DNA from: Eledone cirrhosa
Lineage: Eukaryota
Length of the DNA: 64,000 bases
NCBI GenBank assembly: GCA_964016885.1
Contig: OZ024741.1
Span: 212,164,001 to 212,228,000, forward strand
Direction: 5' to 3'
Under the pieces are notes generated by a model that had not been told where the DNA came from, did not search any database, and saw only the letters and a program-made list of their open reading frames with translations. Both the position numbers and the translations under genes were made by a program. Each line of letters begins with the position of its first letter. Within the stretch, counting starts at the first letter, position 1. Of this stretch, positions 3,102 through 56,106 are shown in pieces.

Positions 3102-3724
<623 letters not shown>

Positions 3725-3833: not shown

Positions 3834-4170
3834 ATGTAGATAAATCTACCAAAAGTTTACGGTAGTGTCCAATCCGTATGAAGAACTCAATGTAATCCGG
3901 ATATCATGGAAAGAAGAGATGCATTCAAAAATCACTTTCGGTGAAAGATAAACGGAATACAGAGTCAAGATAAAATATAAAAAAAATAATGAATAAAACA
4001 AAGAAACAGTTCCTTATATTAAACAAAAAAAGTTCATTATTTAACGATCGTTTCTAGGACATATATGTGTTAGAATTGGCATGCATATTCAAAAGATCTA
4101 TGTACAAAATTATACAAACTATCAAGGAGAATATACATACCATCACATATATATGCTGTCTTCAGAAATA

Positions 4171-4172
<2 letters not shown>
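3834..4172 (-). mobile_element. Family F element fragment in (TA)n, containing a long-stem-II HHR (4033-4172)
   Basis: Near-identical to 52484-52821. Minus strand ATTATTT-CTGAAGA...GAAA-CGATCG-TT-AAATAAT. Confidence 0.8.
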
Positions 4173-7122: not shown

Positions 7123-7835
7123 TCTGTCTAGTTTATGTGTATGTAAACTTCTAAATTTTATATACTCCCGTAAGGTTGAGTAAAACTTTAGGCAGTATTC
7201 GGCTGCTCTTTCTAACAACCAGCCTACTCGCCGTCAGGCACCAATCACAAGCTTTCTGACTTGACCATTGGCCATGTGACAATTCTTAGCCATTTTGAAT
7301 TCGTTTCTGGCGGGGATCATTTAAGAAAAATCTTTGTCCAATTGAGTTTGTCTCCTGATGATTTCGAAACTCATTGATTTATCCATGATCGGATATTTCC
7401 AAAAAGCGAATGAAATCTCCGGGGGTAGAGATATGAGTTTAGTATTTTTATGTACATTCTTTCTTCTAACTTTGATTTAGTACCTAATTATGTATGGTTA
7501 ACTATATCTCTAGTCAATTTCTACAGGCTATTAGAAATACTAGGTAAATCTTCTGTGGCTGTGGATCGCGGATAAAAAAGCTATCATTTATTTATCAATT
7601 ATTTCTTCATAGGTACATTTTAAACTTATAGCCTCGTTTTAATGATTTTTTTATGTAGTTGATTATGCTGATTGGGAGAATAAATACTGTATAGATTTTA
7701 TCAAATGATTCTATTGACTTCCTTTCTTATATATTGCTCTGATTGTTAATTATTTAATTAATTAATTCGTCATTGAGCCACACCATGAATGGTTGCCAAA
7801 AACACATATATATATATGACTCTGTCTAGTTTATG
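6722..7835 (+). repeat. 1.5-mer direct repeat, period ~746 bp (pLTR/retrozyme-like)
   Basis: 6722-7135 is repeated at 7468-7835. The spacer contains CTGATGA-TTTC-GAAAC at 7355. Confidence 0.8.
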
Positions 7836-8019
7836 GGGTAACAAAATATCGTTATAATAAATCCCCTTTTTTGTACTGTTGACCATGTTATTCTCCACTT
7901 TTTCAATTATTTTTCAATTATAAATATATATACATATGTTGCGTATACATATGGTTATTCTTTTAATATCCAATTGAGTTCTTATACACGTGGTTAATAC
8001 GGTTTAAATGACCAGCGTG

Positions 8020-8493
8020 TATATTGTTTTATTTTAAGATGACCTCCCTTTACCCTTTTGGGTACAGCGTGTATTTTATCTTTGGGAGGACTGCCGGATT
8101 TTCTAATCTACCAGTCTCTTCTTAGCGCTGAGGGAGACCATCACCATTCTGTTAATGTTGATATAATTCTTATATCGATATTATTTGGGCATCCACTGAG
8201 ATGTTTATAAGAGCCCGCTTGTGTATAAAACTATGGATTATATACAAGTTTCTACATAACCTGGAAATTATTTATCCCAAATTGTAGAAAACTTATAACG
8301 AAACGGCCGTCTGGAAGGAAAGAGATATTTATTTAATAATGTCTCACATAAAATAATACAACCAGCTATCCACGAAATACTGATTAGTTAGCACCCCAAA
8401 CACTAAATTGGGATAATACTTAGGTATATCCTAATGTTTGTTGAGTGAGATGGAGTTGGTCGGAGTATCGCTTAAGGCTTTCTCTGTTTATGT

Positions 8494-9082: not shown

Positions 9083-9560
9083 ATCAAAAGATGGTTAAAA
9101 GAGTTCCATGTATTTTATTATGCGCATTTCAAAAACAAATATCATCATGCAATAATATTTGTGTTTTCATCAGATAAAATAGGAAGACATGATATGAAGG
9201 TTAAAAAACACTTGTGAATAGTGCAGTTTTAAATCAACATAGAGATATGTTGATTTAAAACTGCACTATTCACAAGTGTTTTTTAACCTTCATATCATGT
9301 CTTCCTATTTTATCTGATGAAAACACAAATATTATTGCATGATGATATTTGTTTTTGAAATGCGCATAATAAAATACATGGAACTCTTTTAACCATCTTT
9401 TGATCTTATATATTATGTATACTCCAGTCCTACAAACTGTAGAGTGCTACTTATCCGATATCTGCATTGCTTTATTGTACTACAATAAAACTCACCTCCT
9501 ACACATATATATGTCTGTATTGAATTTATTAAATAATGTAATTTAACCTTGTTATTGTAT
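9078..9560 (+). mobile_element. Family H element: perfect ~165 bp inverted repeat plus extended right arm
   Basis: 9078-9240 is the exact reverse complement of 9247-9409, with a 6-nt loop; preceded by (TA)n. Confidence 0.9.
9306..9376 (+). ncRNA. Hammerhead ribozyme (mirror copy on minus strand 9111-9181)
   Basis: TATTTTAT-CTGATGA-long stem II (AAAC..CAAATATTA/TGATATTTG.TTTT)-GAAA-TGCGCA-TA-ATAAAATA. Confidence 0.85.
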
Positions 9561-20275: not shown

Positions 20276-22870
20276 AGTTGTATGTTGCAGCAGGGTAGAC
20301 CTTGTCAAGTTGTATGTTGCAGCAGGGTAGACCTTGTCAAGTTGTATGTTGCAGCAGGGTAGACCTTGTCAAGTTGTATGTTGCAGCAGGGTAGACCTTG
20401 CTAAGTTGTATGTTGCAGCAGGGTAGACCTTGTCAAGTTGTATGTTGCAGCAGGGTAGACCTTGTCAAGTTGTATGTTGCAGCAGGGTAGACCTTGCTAA
20501 GTTGTATGTTGCAGCAGGGTAGACCTTGTCAAGTTGTATGTTGCAGCAGGGTAAACCTTGCTAAGTTGTATGTTGCAGCAGGGTAGACCTTGTCAAGTTG
20601 TATGTTGCAGCAGAGTAGACCTTGCTAAGTTGTATGTTGCAGCAGGGTAGACCTTGTCAAGTTGTATGTTGCAGCAGGGTAAACCTTGCTAAGTTGTATG
20701 TTGCAGCAGGGTAGACCTTGTCAAGTTGTATGTTGCAATAGGGTAGACCTTGTCAAGTTGTATGTTGCAATAGGGTAGACCTTGTCAAGTTGTATGTTGC
20801 AGCAGGGTAGACCTTGTCAAGTTGTATGTTGCAGCAGGGTAGACCTTGTCAAGTTGTATGTTGCAGCAGGGTAGACCTTGTCAAGTTGTATGTTGCAGCA
20901 GGGTAGACCTTGCTAAGTTGTATGTTGCAGCAGGGTAGACCTTGTCAAGGTGTATGTTGCAGCAGGGTAGACCTTGCTAAGTTGTATGTTGCAGCAGGGT
21001 AGACCTTGTCAAGTTGTATGTTGCAGCAGGGTAGACCTTGTCAAGTTGTATGTTGCAGCAGGGTAGACCTTGCTAAGTTGTATGTTGCAATAGGGTAGAC
21101 CTTGTCAAGTTGTATGTTGCAGCAGGGTAGACCTTGTCAAGTTGTATGTTGCAATAGGGTAGACCTTGTCAAGTTGTATGTTGCAGCAGGGTAGACCTTG
21201 CTAAGTTGTATGTTGCAGCAGGGTAGACCTTGTCAAGTTGTATGTTGCAATAGGGTAGACCTTGTCAAGTTGTATGTTGCAGCAGGGTAGACCTTGCTAA
21301 GTTGTATGTTGCAATAGGGTAGACCTTGTCAAGTTGTATGTTGCAGCAGGGTAGACCTTGCTAAGTTGTATGTTGCAGCAGGGTAGACCTTGTCAAGTTG
21401 TATGTTGCAGCAGGGTAAACCTTGCTAAGTTGTATGTTGTAGCAGGGTAGACCTTGTCAAGTTGTATGTTGCAATAGGGTAGACCTTGTCAAGTTGTATG
21501 TTGCAGCAGGGTAAACCTTGCTAAGTTGTATGTTGCAGCAGGGTAGACCTTGTCAAGTTGTATGTTGCAATAGGTTAGACCTTGTCAAGTTGTATGTTGC
21601 AGCAGGGTAGACCTTGCTAAGTTCTATGTTGCAGCAGGGTAGACCTTGTCAAGTTGTATGTTGCAGCAGGGTAGACCTTGCTAAGTTGTATGTTGCAGCA
21701 GGGTAGACCTTGCTAAGTTGTATGTTGTAGCAGGGTAGACCTTGTCAAGTTGTATGTTGCAGCAGGGTAAACCTTGCTAAGTTGTATGTTGCAGCAGGGT
21801 AGACCTTGTCAAGTTGTATGTTGCAATAGGGTAGACCTTGTCAAGTTGTATGTTGCAATAGGGTAGACCTTGTCAAGTTGTATGTTGCAGCAGGGTAGAC
21901 CTTGCTAAGTTGTATGTTGCAGCAGGGTAGACCTTGTCAAGTTGTATGTTGCAGCAGGGTCGACCTTGTCAAGTTGTATGTTGCAGCAGGGTAGACCTTG
22001 CTAAGTTGTATGTTGCAGCAGGGTAGACCTTGTCAAGTTGTATGTTGCAGCAGGGTAGACCTTGCTAAGTTGTATGTTGCAGCAGGGTAGACCTTGTCAA
22101 GTTGTATGTTGCAGCAGGGTAGACCTTGTCAAGTTGTATGTTGCAGCAGGGTAGACCTTGCTAAGTTGTATGTTGCAATAGGGTAGACCTTGTCAAGTTG
22201 TATGTTGCAATAGGGTAGACCTTGTCAAGTTGTATGTTGCAATAGGGTAGACCTTGTCAAGTTGTATGTTGCAATAGGGTAGACCTTGCTAAGTTGTATG
22301 TTGCAATAGGGTAGACCTTGTCAAGTTGTATGTTGCAGCAGGGTAGACCTTGCTAAGTTGTATGTTGCAGCAGGGTAGACCTTGTCAAGTTGTATGTTGC
22401 AATAGGGTAGACCTTGTCAAGTTGTATGTTGCAGCAGGGTAGACCTTGCTAAGTTGTATGTTGCAGCAGGGTAGACCTTGTCAAGTTGTATGTTGCAGCA
22501 GGGTAGACCTTGTCAAGTTGTATGTTGCAGCAGGGTAGACCTTGCTAGGTTGTATGTTGCAATAGGGTAGACCTTGTCAAGTTGTATGTTGCAGCAGGGT
22601 AGACCTTGTCAAGTTGTATGTTGCAGCAGGGTAGACCTTGTCAAGTTGTATGTTGCAGCAGGGTAGACCTTGTCAAGTTGTATGTTGCAATAGGGTAGAC
22701 CTTGTCAAGTTGTATGTTGCAGCAGGGTAGACCTTGCTAAGTTGTATGTTGCAGCAGGGTAGACCTTGCTAAGTTGTATGTTGCAGCAGGGTAGACCTTG
22801 TCAAGTTGTATGTTGCAATAGGGTAGACCTCGCTAAGTTGTATGTTGCAGCAGGGTAGACCTCGCTAAGT
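20276..22870. repeat. 32-bp minisatellite, about 81 copies
   Basis: GTTGTATGTTGCA(GC/AT)AGGGTAGACCTTG(TC/CT)AA; exact 32-nt period with no spacers. Confidence 0.97.
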
Positions 22871-23115: not shown

Positions 23116-25147
23116 TAAACACAGACGTGCGTGTGTGTGTGTGAGATCTCCCACCCACCTTGTGGTAGGTGTGAGATGTCTTCTCTTGTGAAAATGGGTA
23201 TAGCTTTCATTACGTAAAAACTTTTCATTTTGTCACATCTCTCCCCGTGTGGGGACTCATTTTATCATGGTACTCCCCGTTTAGGTTTTTAGAGGTTGGC
23301 AGGTCTAATGCGTATGCGTGGTATACTCAGCCACCTCCAAGTACATTTCACTAACTATTTGTACCAGTGGCCAAACACCTTCACCACTCGTCGTCGGAAC
23401 CACCAGATATCCAACAGCAACATAACATGCTATAATTTGCTCCTCTATATCTTTATAGCTATTTACTGTTATGTACATATCTTCTCTATCTTTCGCTATA
23501 CACAGTACACATACAGCTATGTTATGTTTTCTTGTTTTCGTTCTAAGTATCATTTATTTTGGAAAAGCCAAGAAAGAATCAAGATATTTTAAAACTACAT
23601 AATAAACAAACTTATATAATAATATTCTGAACACGTAGCTCCACAATAAAATTTTATTTGTTTACTAAAACCAAGTTCACACTGTATATTTAAATGTCGA
23701 AATGTCGCAAATAATTTTTATTTATTTTATTTTTGTTCATTGAAATTACTTCTGTGCAGTGTGTATCGCAGTAACAAACCGTTATATGTGTTGGCCAATA
23801 TTCAAAATGTATATGTTTCGTGTGTGTTGTAATTAATAAAGAGAACAGGGAGAAATTTATCGGCTGCTAGTTCCCAACACGACAGACATTCTTATATCAA
23901 CTGTAACACTTTAACAATAATAAGTATGTACACGACGTTAGTTTGACGTGTTAAAACTATAGCATTGAAATAATATGCTATGTTAAAATGTCTGTATGTT
24001 TTTGTCTCGACTTTTATGAATAATACATTCTTAGCATTTAAAACTATCGACCACCAACTCTTGATTCTTTTCTAACTGAAATTTTGTATCATTTCTAAAA
24101 CGAAAATATACATTAACGAAAAATAAAGAAAAATAATCTACGAAACCAAAAGAAAAAAGAAAAAAGTTGTCGAACTAATACGTGGAAATCGGAAGCAGCT
24201 ATAATTTTAGACATGTTTCACATGGAAATACCACGTATTATATGTCATTAGACGATGTAGAAAAGCTGTAATCTTTCTACGGTATTCGTTATCCAATAGT
24301 TATTTGCGTAAATATATTTATGGCTACACGAAATATGTTTACTATTAGTATGAAATGTTTAAGTACCGTCTCACTGTACGACTATTTACCAGATATGACA
24401 AAATAAAATAGACACAAAACAAAATAAAAGGAAACGAATATATGAAATTTGAAATGTGTGCGTCCTGACGGAAATGACTACAGTAACAGTCGATTGCTAT
24501 TTATGATAGTTTAGAAAATCGAGTAAAGTAGCACTGGAAGGGGAATAAAAGTGGACATAGGTAGCAACGAGAAATCGAACCTTGCATCTCTCGGATGCCG
24601 GGTGAGTGCGTTAAAAGTCTAAAGTCTGTGTCGAGCCCTGAGGCTCATCAGGCCGGTGCTTATCTCAATCTCCATAGCATTAAACGACAGAGAGAACAAG
24701 ACTTCCTACTGGAAAAGGAGGCAGTCCATAGGAGGATTAAGCGCCCAGCTATTGTTGGTGCTCATTCTCCATTGAGTATACTGGGGCAACATGAAATGAA
24801 ATATTTTGCTCAAGAACACAACCCAATCCAGGTCTCGAATCCACGACGTTATGAACGTAAGGCTAACACAATTACCACCACACTAAAGAGCCACTCGTCA
24901 ACAAAATCCGTCTTTTTGAAAGATATTAAATTGGTAATTAGAAGTTTAAACAAAACGGTTAAATTAAGAAACAGACGCACACACACACACGCACGCACAC
25001 ACACACATACACACATGCGATTCCAAATGGTTCCTCACTCTATCAAATTTCACATAAAAGATATTCGTGAAACCAAGGTTATATTAGAAGATTTCCAGGC
25101 AGTGGGAGTGAAACCAAAACCAGGTGATTGCGAAGCAAACTCCTTAC

Positions 25148-25652
25148 CCTCACAACTATACCTTCACCTATATTTACAGAGAGTTATAAGTTAACCTCAC
25201 AGCCATACCTACACCTATATCTACAGAGATTTATAAGCTAACCTCACAGCCATACCTGCACCTATATCTACAGAGATTCATAAGTTAACCTCACAGCCAT
25301 ACCTACACCTATATCTACAGAGATTCATAAGTTAACCTCACACCATACCTACACCTATATCTACAGAGATTCATAAGCTAACCTCACAGCCATACCTACA
25401 CCTTTATCTACAGAGATTCATAAGCTAACCTCACAGCCATACCTGCACCTATATCTACAGAGATTCATAAGTTAACCTCACAGCCATACCTACACCTATA
25501 TCTACAGAGATTCATAAGTTAACCTCACAGCCATACCTGCACCTTTATCTACAGAGATTCATAAGTTAACCTCACAGCCATACCTGCACCTTTATCTACA
25601 GAGATTCATAAGTTAACCTCACAGCCATACCTATATCTACAGAGATTTATAA
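25148..25652. repeat. 47-bp tandem repeat, about 10.7 copies
   Basis: CCTCACAGCCATACCTACACCTATATCTACAGAGATTCATAAGTTAA. Confidence 0.95.
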
Positions 25653-39246: not shown

Positions 39247-39306
39247 AACAGCGAACTGTACTGATGAAGGGTGATACCCAGAAACATTAGTGTCTGCAGT
39301 TCTGTT
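39247..39306 (+). ncRNA. Hammerhead ribozyme, best canonical example (family I)
   Basis: GAACTGTA-CTGATGA-a-GGGT gat ACCC-a-GAAA-CATTAGTG-TC-TGCAGTTC. The unit has a 30-bp inverted end (39216-39246 vs 39397-39428); a truncated homologue lies at 62457-62610. Confidence 0.9.
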
Positions 39307-46932: not shown

Positions 46933-47592
46933 CTAGCAGTAAAGCCCGGTGTTGCTCGGGGTCGCTCAGTAGCTGTGTTAAAGTTACAATGTTAAGTTTC
47001 TTTTTTGGCTTAAAGTCTGTCTGCACGACTGTCTGTCTGCACGCCTAACGAAATTTACAGATACATATATTTTAAATAAACTTATATAATTTTTGCTTTT
47101 TTTTACGAAATATTTGCTTGTTTTACGTAGTCTTTAAATAGACTTGTTTTCAAGTAAAAATATTGTTTTAAAAGGCTTTTAAATGGAAATGAAGCAAAAC
47201 GGAAGCTTAGTGTTGGAAGTGATGAATTTTGCAGGTCAAAATTTTGCTGGCTCGACAACTGTTCGTGTATTGTGTTAATGTCATTTTAAACGCTGAGAAA
47301 GCCAGCGTAATTTTTTTAATTTTTGCACGCAGAAAATGTAAACAGAACGTAAGACGCTCACTGTAAACAGAACAAAGGGAAATAACTCGTCACTTACGCT
47401 CAAAAATCGATACATTAGATTCGATTTCGTCACATAGGGTGGGTCAACTTGAAATATTTTTTTTCCGATGTCTTCGCTAGGGCTCAATGTACAAGTATAG
47501 CAATTTCGGTGCAATTCCGTCAGAGATTCTAAGAGGAGATGTGTGCCAAAAATCGATAGACAGACAGACAACCACAGCTTTATATATATAGA
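46933..47592 (-). mobile_element. Non-autonomous Helitron
   Basis: Minus strand A|TCTATATATATAAAG...GTCTGTCT microsatellite ... hairpin CCCGAGCAACACCGGG ... CTAG|T. Confidence 0.75.
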
Positions 47593-47880
47593 TATATATA
47601 TATGTGTATGTGTGTATGTGTGTGTATGGATGTGTGTGTGTGTGTGTCTGTATGTATATAGGTGTATGCATATGTGTGCGTGTGTGTGAATATCTGACAA
47701 TCTTTATCGCGCACCCTCTTTGTCTTGCTTTACCTGTCTATCTCTCACTCTGTGACTATTTACCTATCTATCTACCCTATTTATCTACACAACTCTATCA
47801 GTCTAACTGTATGTCTATATATCTACCAATCTATCAGTCTATGTGTCTGACTATCCATCTTTATATCTATCTACCTACCT

Positions 47881-51902: not shown

Positions 51903-53431
51903 GTGTGAATAATGGTAGCTATGGTACTTCCATAGGCGGTATGCCAAAATTAACACTCAATATTCATACAGAGCAGAGTGTGAATAGTATTTAAAAAAAA
52001 CGAAAAATCAGTGATGCATCTGGACTCAGTATAAGCACTCGATGCACATAGAGCAGAGTATGATATCACAGAAAATCTGCTTCGTAGAAACAGGACGTAT
52101 CTGGGGACCTTGCGATTTTCAGAGTCAGGTTCGATCATCACATCTGGTCGCCAGAGAAACGATTGTAATATGTCAAATAAATTTTCATTCGTCGCAACAC
52201 TGATTCTCTTTTTTTCTGTGATATATATATATATATATATTTTATCATTTATTTTGTTTTGACCTGTTTAGCATGATTTGGTTTTGGGCTTGGGTGGTTA
52301 ATGCCTTCTTGACCATCTTTTCAGTTTTGTATGGCTTCTTAACACATTGTTTAGCTCTGGTTTTTAACTATTGAGCACTTTGCCAGTATCATTTCTGATT
52401 TTTGCGTTTCACTTCGCTTTTCCTGACCGCCGAAATGTAATTCTCCCTGAATTTTTATTTATATACATATATATATATATATATGTAGATAAATCTACCA
52501 AAAGTTTACGGTAGTGTCCAATCCGTATGAAGAACTCAATGTAATCCGGATATCATGGAAAGAAGAGATGCATTCAAAAATCACTTTCGGGGAAAGATAA
52601 ACGGAATACAGAGTCAAGATAAAATATTAAAAAAATAATGAATAAAACAATGAAACAGTTCCTTATATTAAACAAAAAAAGTTCATTATTTAACGATCGT
52701 TTCTAGGACATATATGTGTTAGAATTGGCATGCATATTCAAAAGATCTATGTACAAAATTATACAAACTATCAAAGAGAATATACATACCATCACATATA
52801 TATGCTGTCTTCAGAAATAATGAAGTATATTTATTGATAATAACAACAATTCAAAATTACAGGTCTGTTTGGGAACAGATTTTAAATAGACCAATGAAAT
52901 ACATAAAAATTCATCAAGAAAATACAGTTAGGTGTGTGTATATATGTAAGTAACTTCGTTCACAGATATGCATAAAAATGTATGTTCACATGCATACGCA
53001 TGTCGAAAAAGTGTATGTAAATATAAAAATTCAGGGCTAATGTCTCTGTATGTTTATAATCCACAGACAAAATATACATACATATACATATATATATACA
53101 CACATATATACACACATATACATACATTCATACACACACACACGCATATATACATAAACACACACATACCTACGAACACACACATATATACACACACACA
53201 CACACATACGTATATATTATTATTATAACTATATGGATATTGAGGCGCACACATAAACACGGCCACACACACTTACATCTAGATGCAGAATTAAAAGGAG
53301 GTAAGGGAGTAAGTAATTAAGGAGGGTGTCAGACTCAGCATATTTATAAAAATGTATCTATAAATTTAGAAATAAAAAGAAATATAATAAAAGAAATATA
53401 CAAGTAAAACATACTCATACATATAAATACA

Positions 53432-53535
<104 letters not shown>

Positions 53536-53778
53536 CACATACGCACAACACACATATATATACATATATGTACACACACATACACACACATACATATATA
53601 TATACATATATATACATATATATATACACACATATATATACACACATATATATATACACACACACACATACATATACGTATATATACATACACACACATA
53701 CCCATGTATATATACACACAACCACACACTCACACACACTCAGACATACATAAATATAGAGACATACATACACACATA

Positions 53779-53850
<72 letters not shown>

Positions 53851-53944
53851 AAATAAATACACACAGTCAGACAATTATGCACATATATACACATACATAC
53901 ACACATCTCTACAAATACATATACATACACATACATACATACAC

Positions 53945-54034
<90 letters not shown>

Positions 54035-54299
54035 TCATACACACTTATTTACATGCGCACATATGTATTCTTTTACTCACATAAAAACACACAAACATAC
54101 ATACATACTTACATACACATACATACATCCACGCTTACAAATACGAAAAATTATGGGGGGGGGAGGGGGATTAAAATTATTAGTGGGAAATAGTAACTAT
54201 AGGTTTCAAGGAACATAGAATATTAATCTGCATTTAAATCATAATATGTGTTTACATAGTAGTGTCAGTATTAGGAAATGGTATTTGTAAGAAAGAAGG

Positions 54300-55170
54300 C
54301 TAAATTATGCATTTTAATATAAGTAGACTATTAATTATAGGTTAATTAAAGTAAAAATAGTTAATATATTAATTTCTAAGGTGTATACTACTTAGGTTTA
54401 TAATATTTAAAGCGGAATTTTGAAGTTAAACAGTAGTAGAGTATTAATTATAGCATAACTAAATTAAAAATATTAACATGATGGTATCAATTTTAGGAAA
54501 TGAATTTTGTAATAGGGAAAGCCAAATCAAGTATTTCATCGGTAGTAGAATATTAATTATAGGTTAACTAAAAATTATATATTAATTTCTATAGTATATG
54601 TTAATTAGGTTTATAATAATTAAAGCAAATTTTGTATTTTATCTATAGTAGAATACAATTATAGGTTAACTAAATTAAAATTAATCTATATATTTATTTG
54701 TAAAGAATATATTAATTAGGTATATATTTAAAAGTTTTTCTCAGTTTATGATTACATGATATTCTGCAATCCATCTGTATTAGAATTTTAATTTTAAGCT
54801 AACTAAATTAAAATTATAGGTTAACTAAATTAAAATTAATTTATAAATTAATTTCTAAATTGTATATTAATTAGGTTTATAATATTAAAAAGTATTTCTC
54901 TGTTATTGATTACACGATATTTTGTTATATTTCATCTGTAAAGGAATTTTAATAAAAGGTTAAATAAACAAAAATTAATCTATATATTAATTTCCAAAGT
55001 ATATATTAATTATGTTAATAATATTTAAAAGTTTTTCACAGTTTATGATTACACGATATTTTTTAATTTCATCTGTAGTAGAATTTTAATTAAATTAAAA
55101 TTATAGGTTAACTACACTTAACTAAATTTAAATTTAAGTTTAAATTATAGGTTAACTACAGTTAACTAAA
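54300..55170. repeat. AT-rich degenerate ~120 bp repeats
   Basis: Recurring TTATAGGTTAACTAAATTAAAA and TTAGGTTTATAAT motifs. Confidence 0.7.
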
Positions 55171-55710
55171 TTTATAGATACATTTTTATAAATATGCTGA
55201 GTCTGACACCCTCCTTAATTACTTACTCCCTTACCTCCTTTTAATTCTGCATCTAGATGTAAGTGTGTGTGGCCGTGTTTATGTGTGCGCCTCAATATCC
55301 ATATAGTTATAATAATAATATATACGTATGTGTGTGTGTGTGTGTATATATATGTGTGTGTGTGTTCGTAGGTATGTGTGTGTTTATGTATATATGCGTG
55401 TGTGTGTATGAATGTATGTATATGTGTGTATATATGTGTGTATATATATATGTATATGTATGTATATTTCGTCATACTCTGTCATACAGAGACATTAGCC
55501 CTGAATTTTTATATTAACATACACTTTTTCGACATGCCTATGCATCTGAACATACATTTTTATGCATATCTGTGAACGAAGTTACTTACATATATACACA
55601 CACCTAACTGTATTTTCTTGATGAATTTTTATGTATTTCATTGGTCTATTTAAAATCTGTTCCCAAACAGACCTGTAATTTTGAATTGTTGTTATTATCA
55701 ATAAATATAC

Positions 55711-55853
55711 TTCATTATTTCTGAAGACAGCATATATATGTGATGGTATGTATATTCTCTTTGATAGTTTGTATAATTTTGTACATAGATCTTTTGAATA
55801 TGCATGCCAATTCTAACACATATATGTCCTAGAAACGATCGTTAAATAATGAA
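55711..55853 (+). ncRNA. Hammerhead ribozyme with 104-nt stem II (mirror copy 52682-52824 minus)
   Basis: TTCATTATTT-CTGAAGA-[..CATATATATGTG...CACATATATG..]-GAAA-CGATCG-TT-AAATAATGAA; perfect 10-bp stem I. Confidence 0.85.
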
Positions 55854-56106
55854 CTTTTTTTGTTTAATATAAGGAACTGTTTCATTGTTTTATTCATTAT
55901 TTTTTTTATATTTTATATATATATATAGTTTTTAAAGAATTTCCTTTTCTTTAAATCCATCAACCAATGAACTCCACCCATCCCAATTACCACCCTCTCC
56001 CACCACCAGAAAGGGTATATATACGATCACATTACTTGAACAGTCGGCTTCCTGATGATTTCTTGCGAATGAAACAGTTCTAGTCCCGTATTAGTCATTT
56101 CTATAT

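Follow-up and report, generated by a model that had tools for sequence, protein, structure and literature searches.

An unusually long stem II in a predicted type I hammerhead from the pseudo-LTR of a young Penelope-like element (Hydra clade) of Eledone cirrhosa

Penelope-like elements (PLEs) of the Hydra clade have been defined by a C-terminal GIY-YIG endonuclease and by the protein motifs RW(K/R), DKT, CxCx5C, and CxxC/CxH, with no CCHH motif (Craig et al. 2021, PMC8557442). As described there, Hydra PLEs insert into (TA)n targets, form partial tandems accompanied by inverted 5' copies, and carry in the pseudo-LTR (pLTR) a type I hammerhead whose stem III is short and self-complementary. Metazoan PLE hammerheads have been described as type I motifs with a palindromic helix III and proposed dimer activity, present in many dispersed copies on opposite strands (from the motif descriptions in Cervera and de la Pena 2014, PMC4209133). 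For the Anolis carolinensis Poseidon element PAc, the experiments described in PMC11167929 indicate two internal reverse transcriptase (RT) start sites, insertion from uncut RNA, and cutting only with protein present.

The motif described here, a member of a family that we call F, is at 55711..55853 on the + strand of a 64,000-nucleotide stretch of Eledone cirrhosa DNA (the window, to which all positions refer). It shares with the metazoan PLE hammerheads the type I form, the palindromic helix III, the many dispersed copies on both strands, and dimer use as a proposal. The first-pass annotation had read the motif without a host element. We found that it sits in a Hydra-clade PLE, where hammerheads with a palindromic stem III were already described, and it is almost certainly a type I hammerhead in the pLTR of that element, with self-cleavage predicted.

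The host element had the protein organization of the Hydra clade. Intact copies elsewhere in the genome have a single ORF of 810 amino acids in which we read by eye an RT with YRDD together with a GIY-YIG endonuclease at the C terminus (IVYKC..YIG). The ORF contains RWR, DKT, CxCx5C (CNCRNKANC), CxxC (CRLC), and CxH (CNH) and has no CCHH, the same set as in the published definition (PMC8557442), and the clade assignment was made from these motifs. The (TA)n target, pLTR tandems, inverted 5' copies, and a tail are also as described for Hydra PLEs. Two descriptive traits differ: the unit is ~6.65 kb and the tail 135 nt, compared with generally <3 kb and 30-40 bp in the Hydra PLEs described there. 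We rejected Naiad on the C-terminal position of the endonuclease and on the DKT motif, and we rejected a DNA transposon with terminal inverted repeats on the unequal ends and variable lengths of the arms and their position on either side of an RT gene. Family F is also unlike the non-LTR retrozymes described in PMC7229834, which are short non-coding tandem repeats without an RT of their own; it is part of an autonomous protein-coding element and is linked to an intact ORF. A protein search with the ORF returned 122 relatives at 31-48% identity, none bearing a name among the 120 listed, and Pfam and PDB sequence searches with the ORF gave no informative match. In four of nine long-ORF loci the ORF started 348-361 nt past the predicted cut, at one locus (L053) the first in-frame ATG was 291 nt past it, and in four of the nine there was no motif match upstream of the ORF. 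In the description of PAc, an element of a different clade, the hammerhead is small and overlaps the start codon; in family F the ORF is ~350-360 nt downstream.

By the number and likeness of its copies, the host element is young and very abundant. The pattern CTGANGA-N70..130-GAAACGATCGTH had 2,279 + 10,753 matches in the genome compared with 5 + 12 for a reversed control. These totals (13,032 versus 17 in the 3.0-Gb genome), which supply the genome-wide copy count that the first-pass annotation had proposed, take in sister subfamilies and a second family, E. An anchor downstream of the motif in the young subfamilies had 9,560 genome matches. A DNA search of the genome gave 964 candidates, and the best 40, which were scored, were 99-100% identical; 13 of these 40, the two window arms included, were 100% identical. 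All 92 scored ORF matches were 96-100% identical, many with open frames of ~830 codons. The family had been called recently active from the window alone, and these genome-wide identities bear that out.

All of the parts of a hammerhead were in place in family F by sequence inspection, in the type I order C3-U4-G5-A6-N7-G8-A9, G12-A13-A14, A15.1-U16.1, H17. On the + strand, the two strands of stem I (55711-55720 and 55844-55853) form 10 Watson-Crick pairs, with pair probabilities of 0.43-0.99 for the 5' strand. The core C3-A9, CTGAAGA in the DNA (CUGAAGA), is at 55721-55727 and is followed by a stem II rod of 104 nt (55728-55831). GAAA-CGATCG-TT (55832-55843) then supplies G12-A13-A14, the palindromic stem III, and U17; the palindrome ACGAUCGU is at 55835-55842, and hammerhead numbering puts the predicted cut after 55843. 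The core sequence, the 104-nt insert, and the GAAA-CGATCG-TT segment are thus as first annotated. Three helices surround the core. Stems I and II were backed by folding and covariation; stem III as a monomer has 2 bp (P 0.18) and never varied in the covariation alignment, A1. The G10.1-C11.1 closing pair, which is usual in hammerheads and not universal, is replaced by C.A, and C..A and U..U closures also occur in rows of File S2 of PMC8557442. A search of the 64-kb window with Rfam at gathering scores gave no matches.

The window contains three copies of the motif. Copy 2 (52682-52824, minus strand, predicted cut after 52692) had no differences from copy 1 over 143 nt. Copy 3 (4033-4172, minus strand) had one internal difference and a G instead of the templated C before stem I. 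This insertion begins 7 nt before C3, which leaves a stem I of only 7 bp. The perfect 10-bp stem I that had been ascribed to the family was therefore found in copies 1 and 2 and not in copy 3. The three copies are near-identical, as had been noted, and they represent two insertion events rather than three, because 52682(-) and 55711(+) sit in inverted arms of one insertion.

The right arm of that insertion (55166-55916, +) is the 3' end of a 5'-truncated element, matches 7553-8313 of the element copy L032, and runs to a short 3' end before (TA)n; it is a 757-bp inverted match to 52619-53369 at 97%. The left arm (52484-55165, -) has 2.7 kb of 3' UTR plus the pLTR, extends to a long 3' end, and has no ORF (blastn to L032 5712-8464, 94%), and tblastn of the element protein against the window gave no match. 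Between the short and long 3' ends is a 135-nt tail (52484-52618, -) bounded by two putative RT start sites, placed from the sequence, the junctions, and the model proposed for PAc (PMC11167929). The second event is a separate 338-nt insertion in (TA)n (3835-4172, -) that extends from a hot spot at -7 (7 nt before C3) to the long 3' end and contains copy 3. In L032, a repeat that is also present in the window at 47015-47593 is inserted directly after the ORF.

Two 3' ends, located 73 and 208 nt beyond the predicted cut, accounted for all of the arms, and an inverted pair had one short and one long arm in 14 of 17 listed rows with close junctions. Such a pairing of short with long is the predicted outcome of two RT start sites with priming on each of the target strands. 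We rejected self fold-back of a single cDNA as the source of most inverted pairs, given the different 3' ends on their two arms. The two putative RT starts bounding a tail, the proposed priming on both target strands, the probably uncut template, and the lack of ends at the cut resemble the account of PAc (PMC11167929).

Stem II folded better than expected from its composition, in support of a genuine long-stem-II hammerhead fold. The whole motif region folded at a z score of -4.72 (0 of 200 shuffles as good) and the 104-nt insert alone at -5.45 (1 of 200); the insert had a free energy of -34.2 kcal/mol on the ribozyme strand compared with -21.3 on the opposite strand. From its base, the rod consists of the C10.1.A11.1 mismatch, 2 bp, a C.C mismatch, 11 bp, a bulge, 14 bp, internal loops, and an apical hairpin. 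In the covariation alignment A1, of 22 subfamily representatives, 97.1% of cells were paired, and 7 of 41 pairs changed on both sides (one in stem I and six in stem II). The covariation score was reached by none of 500 shuffles, a test inflated by kinship among representatives that were hand-picked from 147 distinct motifs, and slid controls paired in 20-59% of cells; the structure scored was itself derived from one of the aligned sequences. Across subfamilies stem II was 86-116 nt, with length changes mainly at the tip and in bulges, and a subfamily with a rewritten stem II base (L135, L171, L175) retained both mismatches. Invariance of the core in alignment A1 is uninformative because the rows were chosen by the core pattern. 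As a check independent of A1, no core position was altered at 5% or more of depth in the genomic run X1, unlike neighboring positions; position 17 and stem positions were altered. As read from the folding and the alignment, stem II is a conserved, selected rod that is unusually long for a Hydra-clade PLE hammerhead, and the long arm is likely kept for its shape, as a platform for protein or promoter.

The length of stem II is the main difference between family F and its described relatives. The stem II region is 104-116 nt in family F, compared with ~12-26 nt in the File S2 entries for Hydra PLEs and ~53 nt in the longest entry of that file, a plant PLE-X (PMC8557442); the middle arm is ~4x longer than in described relatives. 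The 10-bp stem I is also unlike the Hydra PLE hammerheads shown in that paper. The helix II described in PMC4209133 is 6-8 bp with G10.1-C11.1, compared with a rod of ~30 bp with C10.1.A11.1 in family F. A second active Hydra family in this genome, with a 40% identical protein, appeared by eye to have only a compact stem II of 20 nt, and the long arm is therefore not required for mobility in the clade. One published hammerhead search used core spacers of 7-17 nt. A stem II of at least 100 nt, in ~13,000 copies, was missed by Rfam in the window and exceeds such short spacers, so elements scored as having no hammerhead may have one. We found no literature on hammerheads with a stem II of ~100 nt in PLEs, or on their editing, in a search that left most subscription papers outside its scope. 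Lunse et al. reportedly described dimer-cleaving PLE hammerheads in 2017 (as cited in PMC6765202), and that paper or its supplements may already list a longer stem II.

Family E has the same stem III as family F. Its hammerhead is at 3322-3443 (+) and has a branched stem II of 95 nt that could not be matched to that of family F. The surroundings of the two had been annotated as unrelated, and our comparison of the two likewise gave no hit between E and F. The family E unit is non-coding, ~720 nt, and occurs in tandems, and a 13-nt motif is common to this unit and the tail of F. Family E is probably a retrozyme carried by such elements: it appears to have the short non-coding tandem form, and it fits the type I hammerhead with a 2-bp stem III described for animal non-LTR retrozymes (from the parts of PMC7229834 and bioRxiv 10.64898/2026.07.22.740005 that treat the motif). 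Other hammerhead families in the genome had a stem II of 13 to 96 nt.

The 5' ends of insertions were clustered just before the hammerhead core and not at the predicted cut. Among 101 arms sampled systematically from the first 58 Mb of one chromosome, 32 ended 0-14 nt before C3 (~20 separate events, with the mode exactly at -7, as in window copy 3) and none ended within 3 nt of the predicted cut. Of the others, 13 ended inside the core or stem II, 28 ended further upstream, and 28 extended past the interval examined. Of the 56 young-subfamily arms listed, 15 had G rather than the templated C at -8, compared with a G at -6 in 5 of 100 (p 0.0002); the signal is modest, as arms are non-independent, slippage could have templated some of the G, and a palindromic join dominates the -6 control. 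Other junctions in the arm sample had a G in about 4 of 23 cases (by-eye reading). In one older subfamily (L284, L287-L291), wholly different DNA, a common repeat present in several of the copies, was upstream of -7 (6 of 30 loci). Family E, with the same stem III, had ~1 of 30 ends at the equivalent point by eye (Fisher p 0.0013 versus family F).

From the 5'-end pile-up and the non-templated G, we infer that transcription starts at 55714 (+), the A of TC|ATT 7 nt before C3; the equivalent positions are 52821 and 4172 on the minus strand. This TC-A-TT resembles the initiator (Inr) consensus, and an internal Inr/DPE promoter is described for the Penelope element of D. virilis. We rejected a splice acceptor at -7 for want of an AG. 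The start at 55714 is likely to be capped, such that the hammerhead would be the first part of the RNA and most templates would be uncut. The first-pass annotation had proposed looking for a 5' RACE end after 55843; because genomic ends lie before the core and not at the cut, the main end is predicted to be at 55714. The passages on PAc insertions in PMC11167929 report no 5'-end pile-up at the hammerhead, unlike what we found for family F.

Pairing of two hammerheads through the palindromic stem III, as first suggested, is plausible from folding models. Stem III is weak in the monomer, and the palindrome can form an 8-bp duplex at -10.0 kcal/mol. The minimum-energy monomer fold was not the active one (-39.3 versus -37.0 kcal/mol), and with a 7-nt 5' strand the predicted fold lost stem I entirely, so that a transcript's first hammerhead may need help to fold. 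Copies 52682(-) and 55711(+) cannot dimerize in cis, because they are in arms of one inverted insertion and point apart. Arrays with the 6.65-kb period, unlike these divergent copies, could in principle pair dimers in cis. Three of four clusters examined were head-to-tail arrays with a period of ~6.65 kb, and arrays reached at least five near-identical units. ORFs differed by 0-5 of 2,400 nt within an array and by 7-20 between arrays, and both arms of one insertion matched. This uniformity fits rolling-circle copying of a cut-and-ligated RNA, and it also fits long read-through templates or local DNA duplication; the multi-unit arrays are a hint of circles. In one array of at least five full units (L346-L349, C6:49.525-49.558 Mb), a T/C difference upstream of the hammerhead alternated from one unit to the next across five in succession, the pattern expected of a template or a duplication that spans two units.

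We consider the following mechanism probable as a whole. An internal promoter would start transcription at 55714, placing the hammerhead at the extreme 5' end of a capped element RNA, where cleavage would be rare and probably either dimeric or assisted by the element protein. The protein would nick both strands of a (TA)n target and start cDNA synthesis from two points, 73 and 208 nt beyond the cut. Many cDNAs would copy through the uncut hammerhead and run off at the cap, and head-to-head joining of two cDNAs would account for the tail-out inverted pairs as well as for the stub of 338 nt at 3835-4172. In long read-through RNAs, with several pLTRs at a spacing of 6.65 kb, double-hammerhead cleavage could proceed through the palindromic stem III and ligation would then yield circles, from which the multi-unit arrays likely derive. 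The long arm would be kept for shape, likely as a protein or promoter platform, and would be an apparent substrate for A-to-I editing. Insertions of this young, huge family would then be a single-base record of how PLEs retrotranspose (from two priming sites, with an RNA 5' end set sharply just ahead of the core, and on uncut templates), and family F makes the open question of the role of PLE hammerheads directly testable.

A ribozyme that cleaves efficiently as a dimer, with the cut setting the RNA ends and every insertion derived from cut-and-religated circles, seems unlikely to us. The stable palindrome duplex, the published dimer cleavage of other PLE hammerheads, and the arrays of at least five near-identical units would all suit it, and so would position 17, which was never G among changes of 5% or more (U>A 27.5% in run X1). 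A circle has no end at -7, yet 32 of the 101 arms end at or close to that point, and none of the 101 ended at the cut. Twelve genome copies do join one arm exactly at the cut via the stem I complement; these junctions are ambiguous, amount to ~0.1% of the 9,560 anchors, and could arise from stem I complementarity without cutting. The published in vitro activity of PLE hammerheads is also low.

A somewhat smaller chance attaches to the pile-up at -7 being an RT stall or template switch that the long hairpin, or a protein bound there, would induce, rather than a transcription start. Stuttered repeats of the last 7-13 nt at junctions and the 13 arms ending inside the structure point in that direction. 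However, RT would reach the structure from its 3' side, where there was no pile-up, and the stop at -7 is precise to a single base, with an additional G at raised frequency. No such pile-up was seen in family E, which has a 95-nt stem II, albeit with a stem I of just 4 bp.

It is very improbable that the motif is catalytically dead or irrelevant and its fold merely a binding or promoter scaffold: the C.A at the base of stem II, the lack of an identifiable loop I-loop II contact, the apparently uncut templates, and the hammerhead mutants of the Anolis element that had no effect on insertion in the experiments described (PMC11167929) are offset by core bases with no common change in genomic reads while neighbors change, by variation at positions 7 and 17 of the kind that catalysis permits, and by a C..A closure in the published PLE hammerhead PLE-X1_cBra.

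Several adenosines in the motif were read as G in one sequencing run. In run X4, A>G was found at 55810 (36%), 55824 (30%), 55831 (A11.1, 23%), 55834 (A14, 5.5%), and 55835 (A15.1, 25%); these five sites account for all of the X4-only changes inside the motif and were nearly absent from the genomic-sized run X1. X4 has the same organism label, comes from another sample and individual than X1, and may not be RNA. A>G was found at 21 places in X4 and 11 in run X2, among the positions listed. A genome search for G at both 11.1 and 15.1 found six copies (L340-L345), in which 96 of 118 differences inside the motif were A>G, 12 of them demanded by the search pattern. In L340 the same changes were mirrored in both arms, and in L341 and L343 the opposite arm had the complementary T>C. 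These marks are a lead, as candidate ADAR editing. Core changes of this kind would be expected to impair hammerhead catalysis, a point on which our literature search listed no paper. If the marks reflect editing of live RNA, they would link host ADAR to the ribozyme core. We regard as doubtful the further idea that the giant stem II is an ADAR-controlled switch at the cap, in which inosine at A11.1, A14, and A15.1 would set whether the RNA is cut and circularized or serves as capped mRNA and template.

Other hammerheads and repeats were also seen. The very young second Hydra family (L269-L271, on C4, C23, and C1) has dozens of copies with identical scores and, ~300 nt upstream of its ORF, an apparent compact hammerhead, read by eye, with a U4C core (CCGAAGA), the 20-nt stem II, and the palindrome CAGCTG. 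At L277 (2084-3768, -), five small tandem hammerheads ~420 nt apart with a 14-nt stem II form a retrozyme-like array. In the window, another hammerhead family with an 8-bp stem I, a 27-36-nt stem II, and a near-palindromic stem III (TGCGCA, TATATA, TATGTA) is at 9173(-)/9314(+), 39923(-), and 59128(-), the first two forming an inverted pair, and hammerhead-like cores with a stem II of 12-52 nt are at 39261(+), 7355(+), about 56052(+), and 32450(-). The window also contains tandem arrays at 20276-22862 (32 bp, 81 copies) and 25144-25633 (47 bp, 10 copies), and a dispersed repeat of ~190 bp in at least ten copies with 80-93% identity (13830, 14016, 16275, 28087, 31472, 34964, 37345, 39475, 56651, and 60168).
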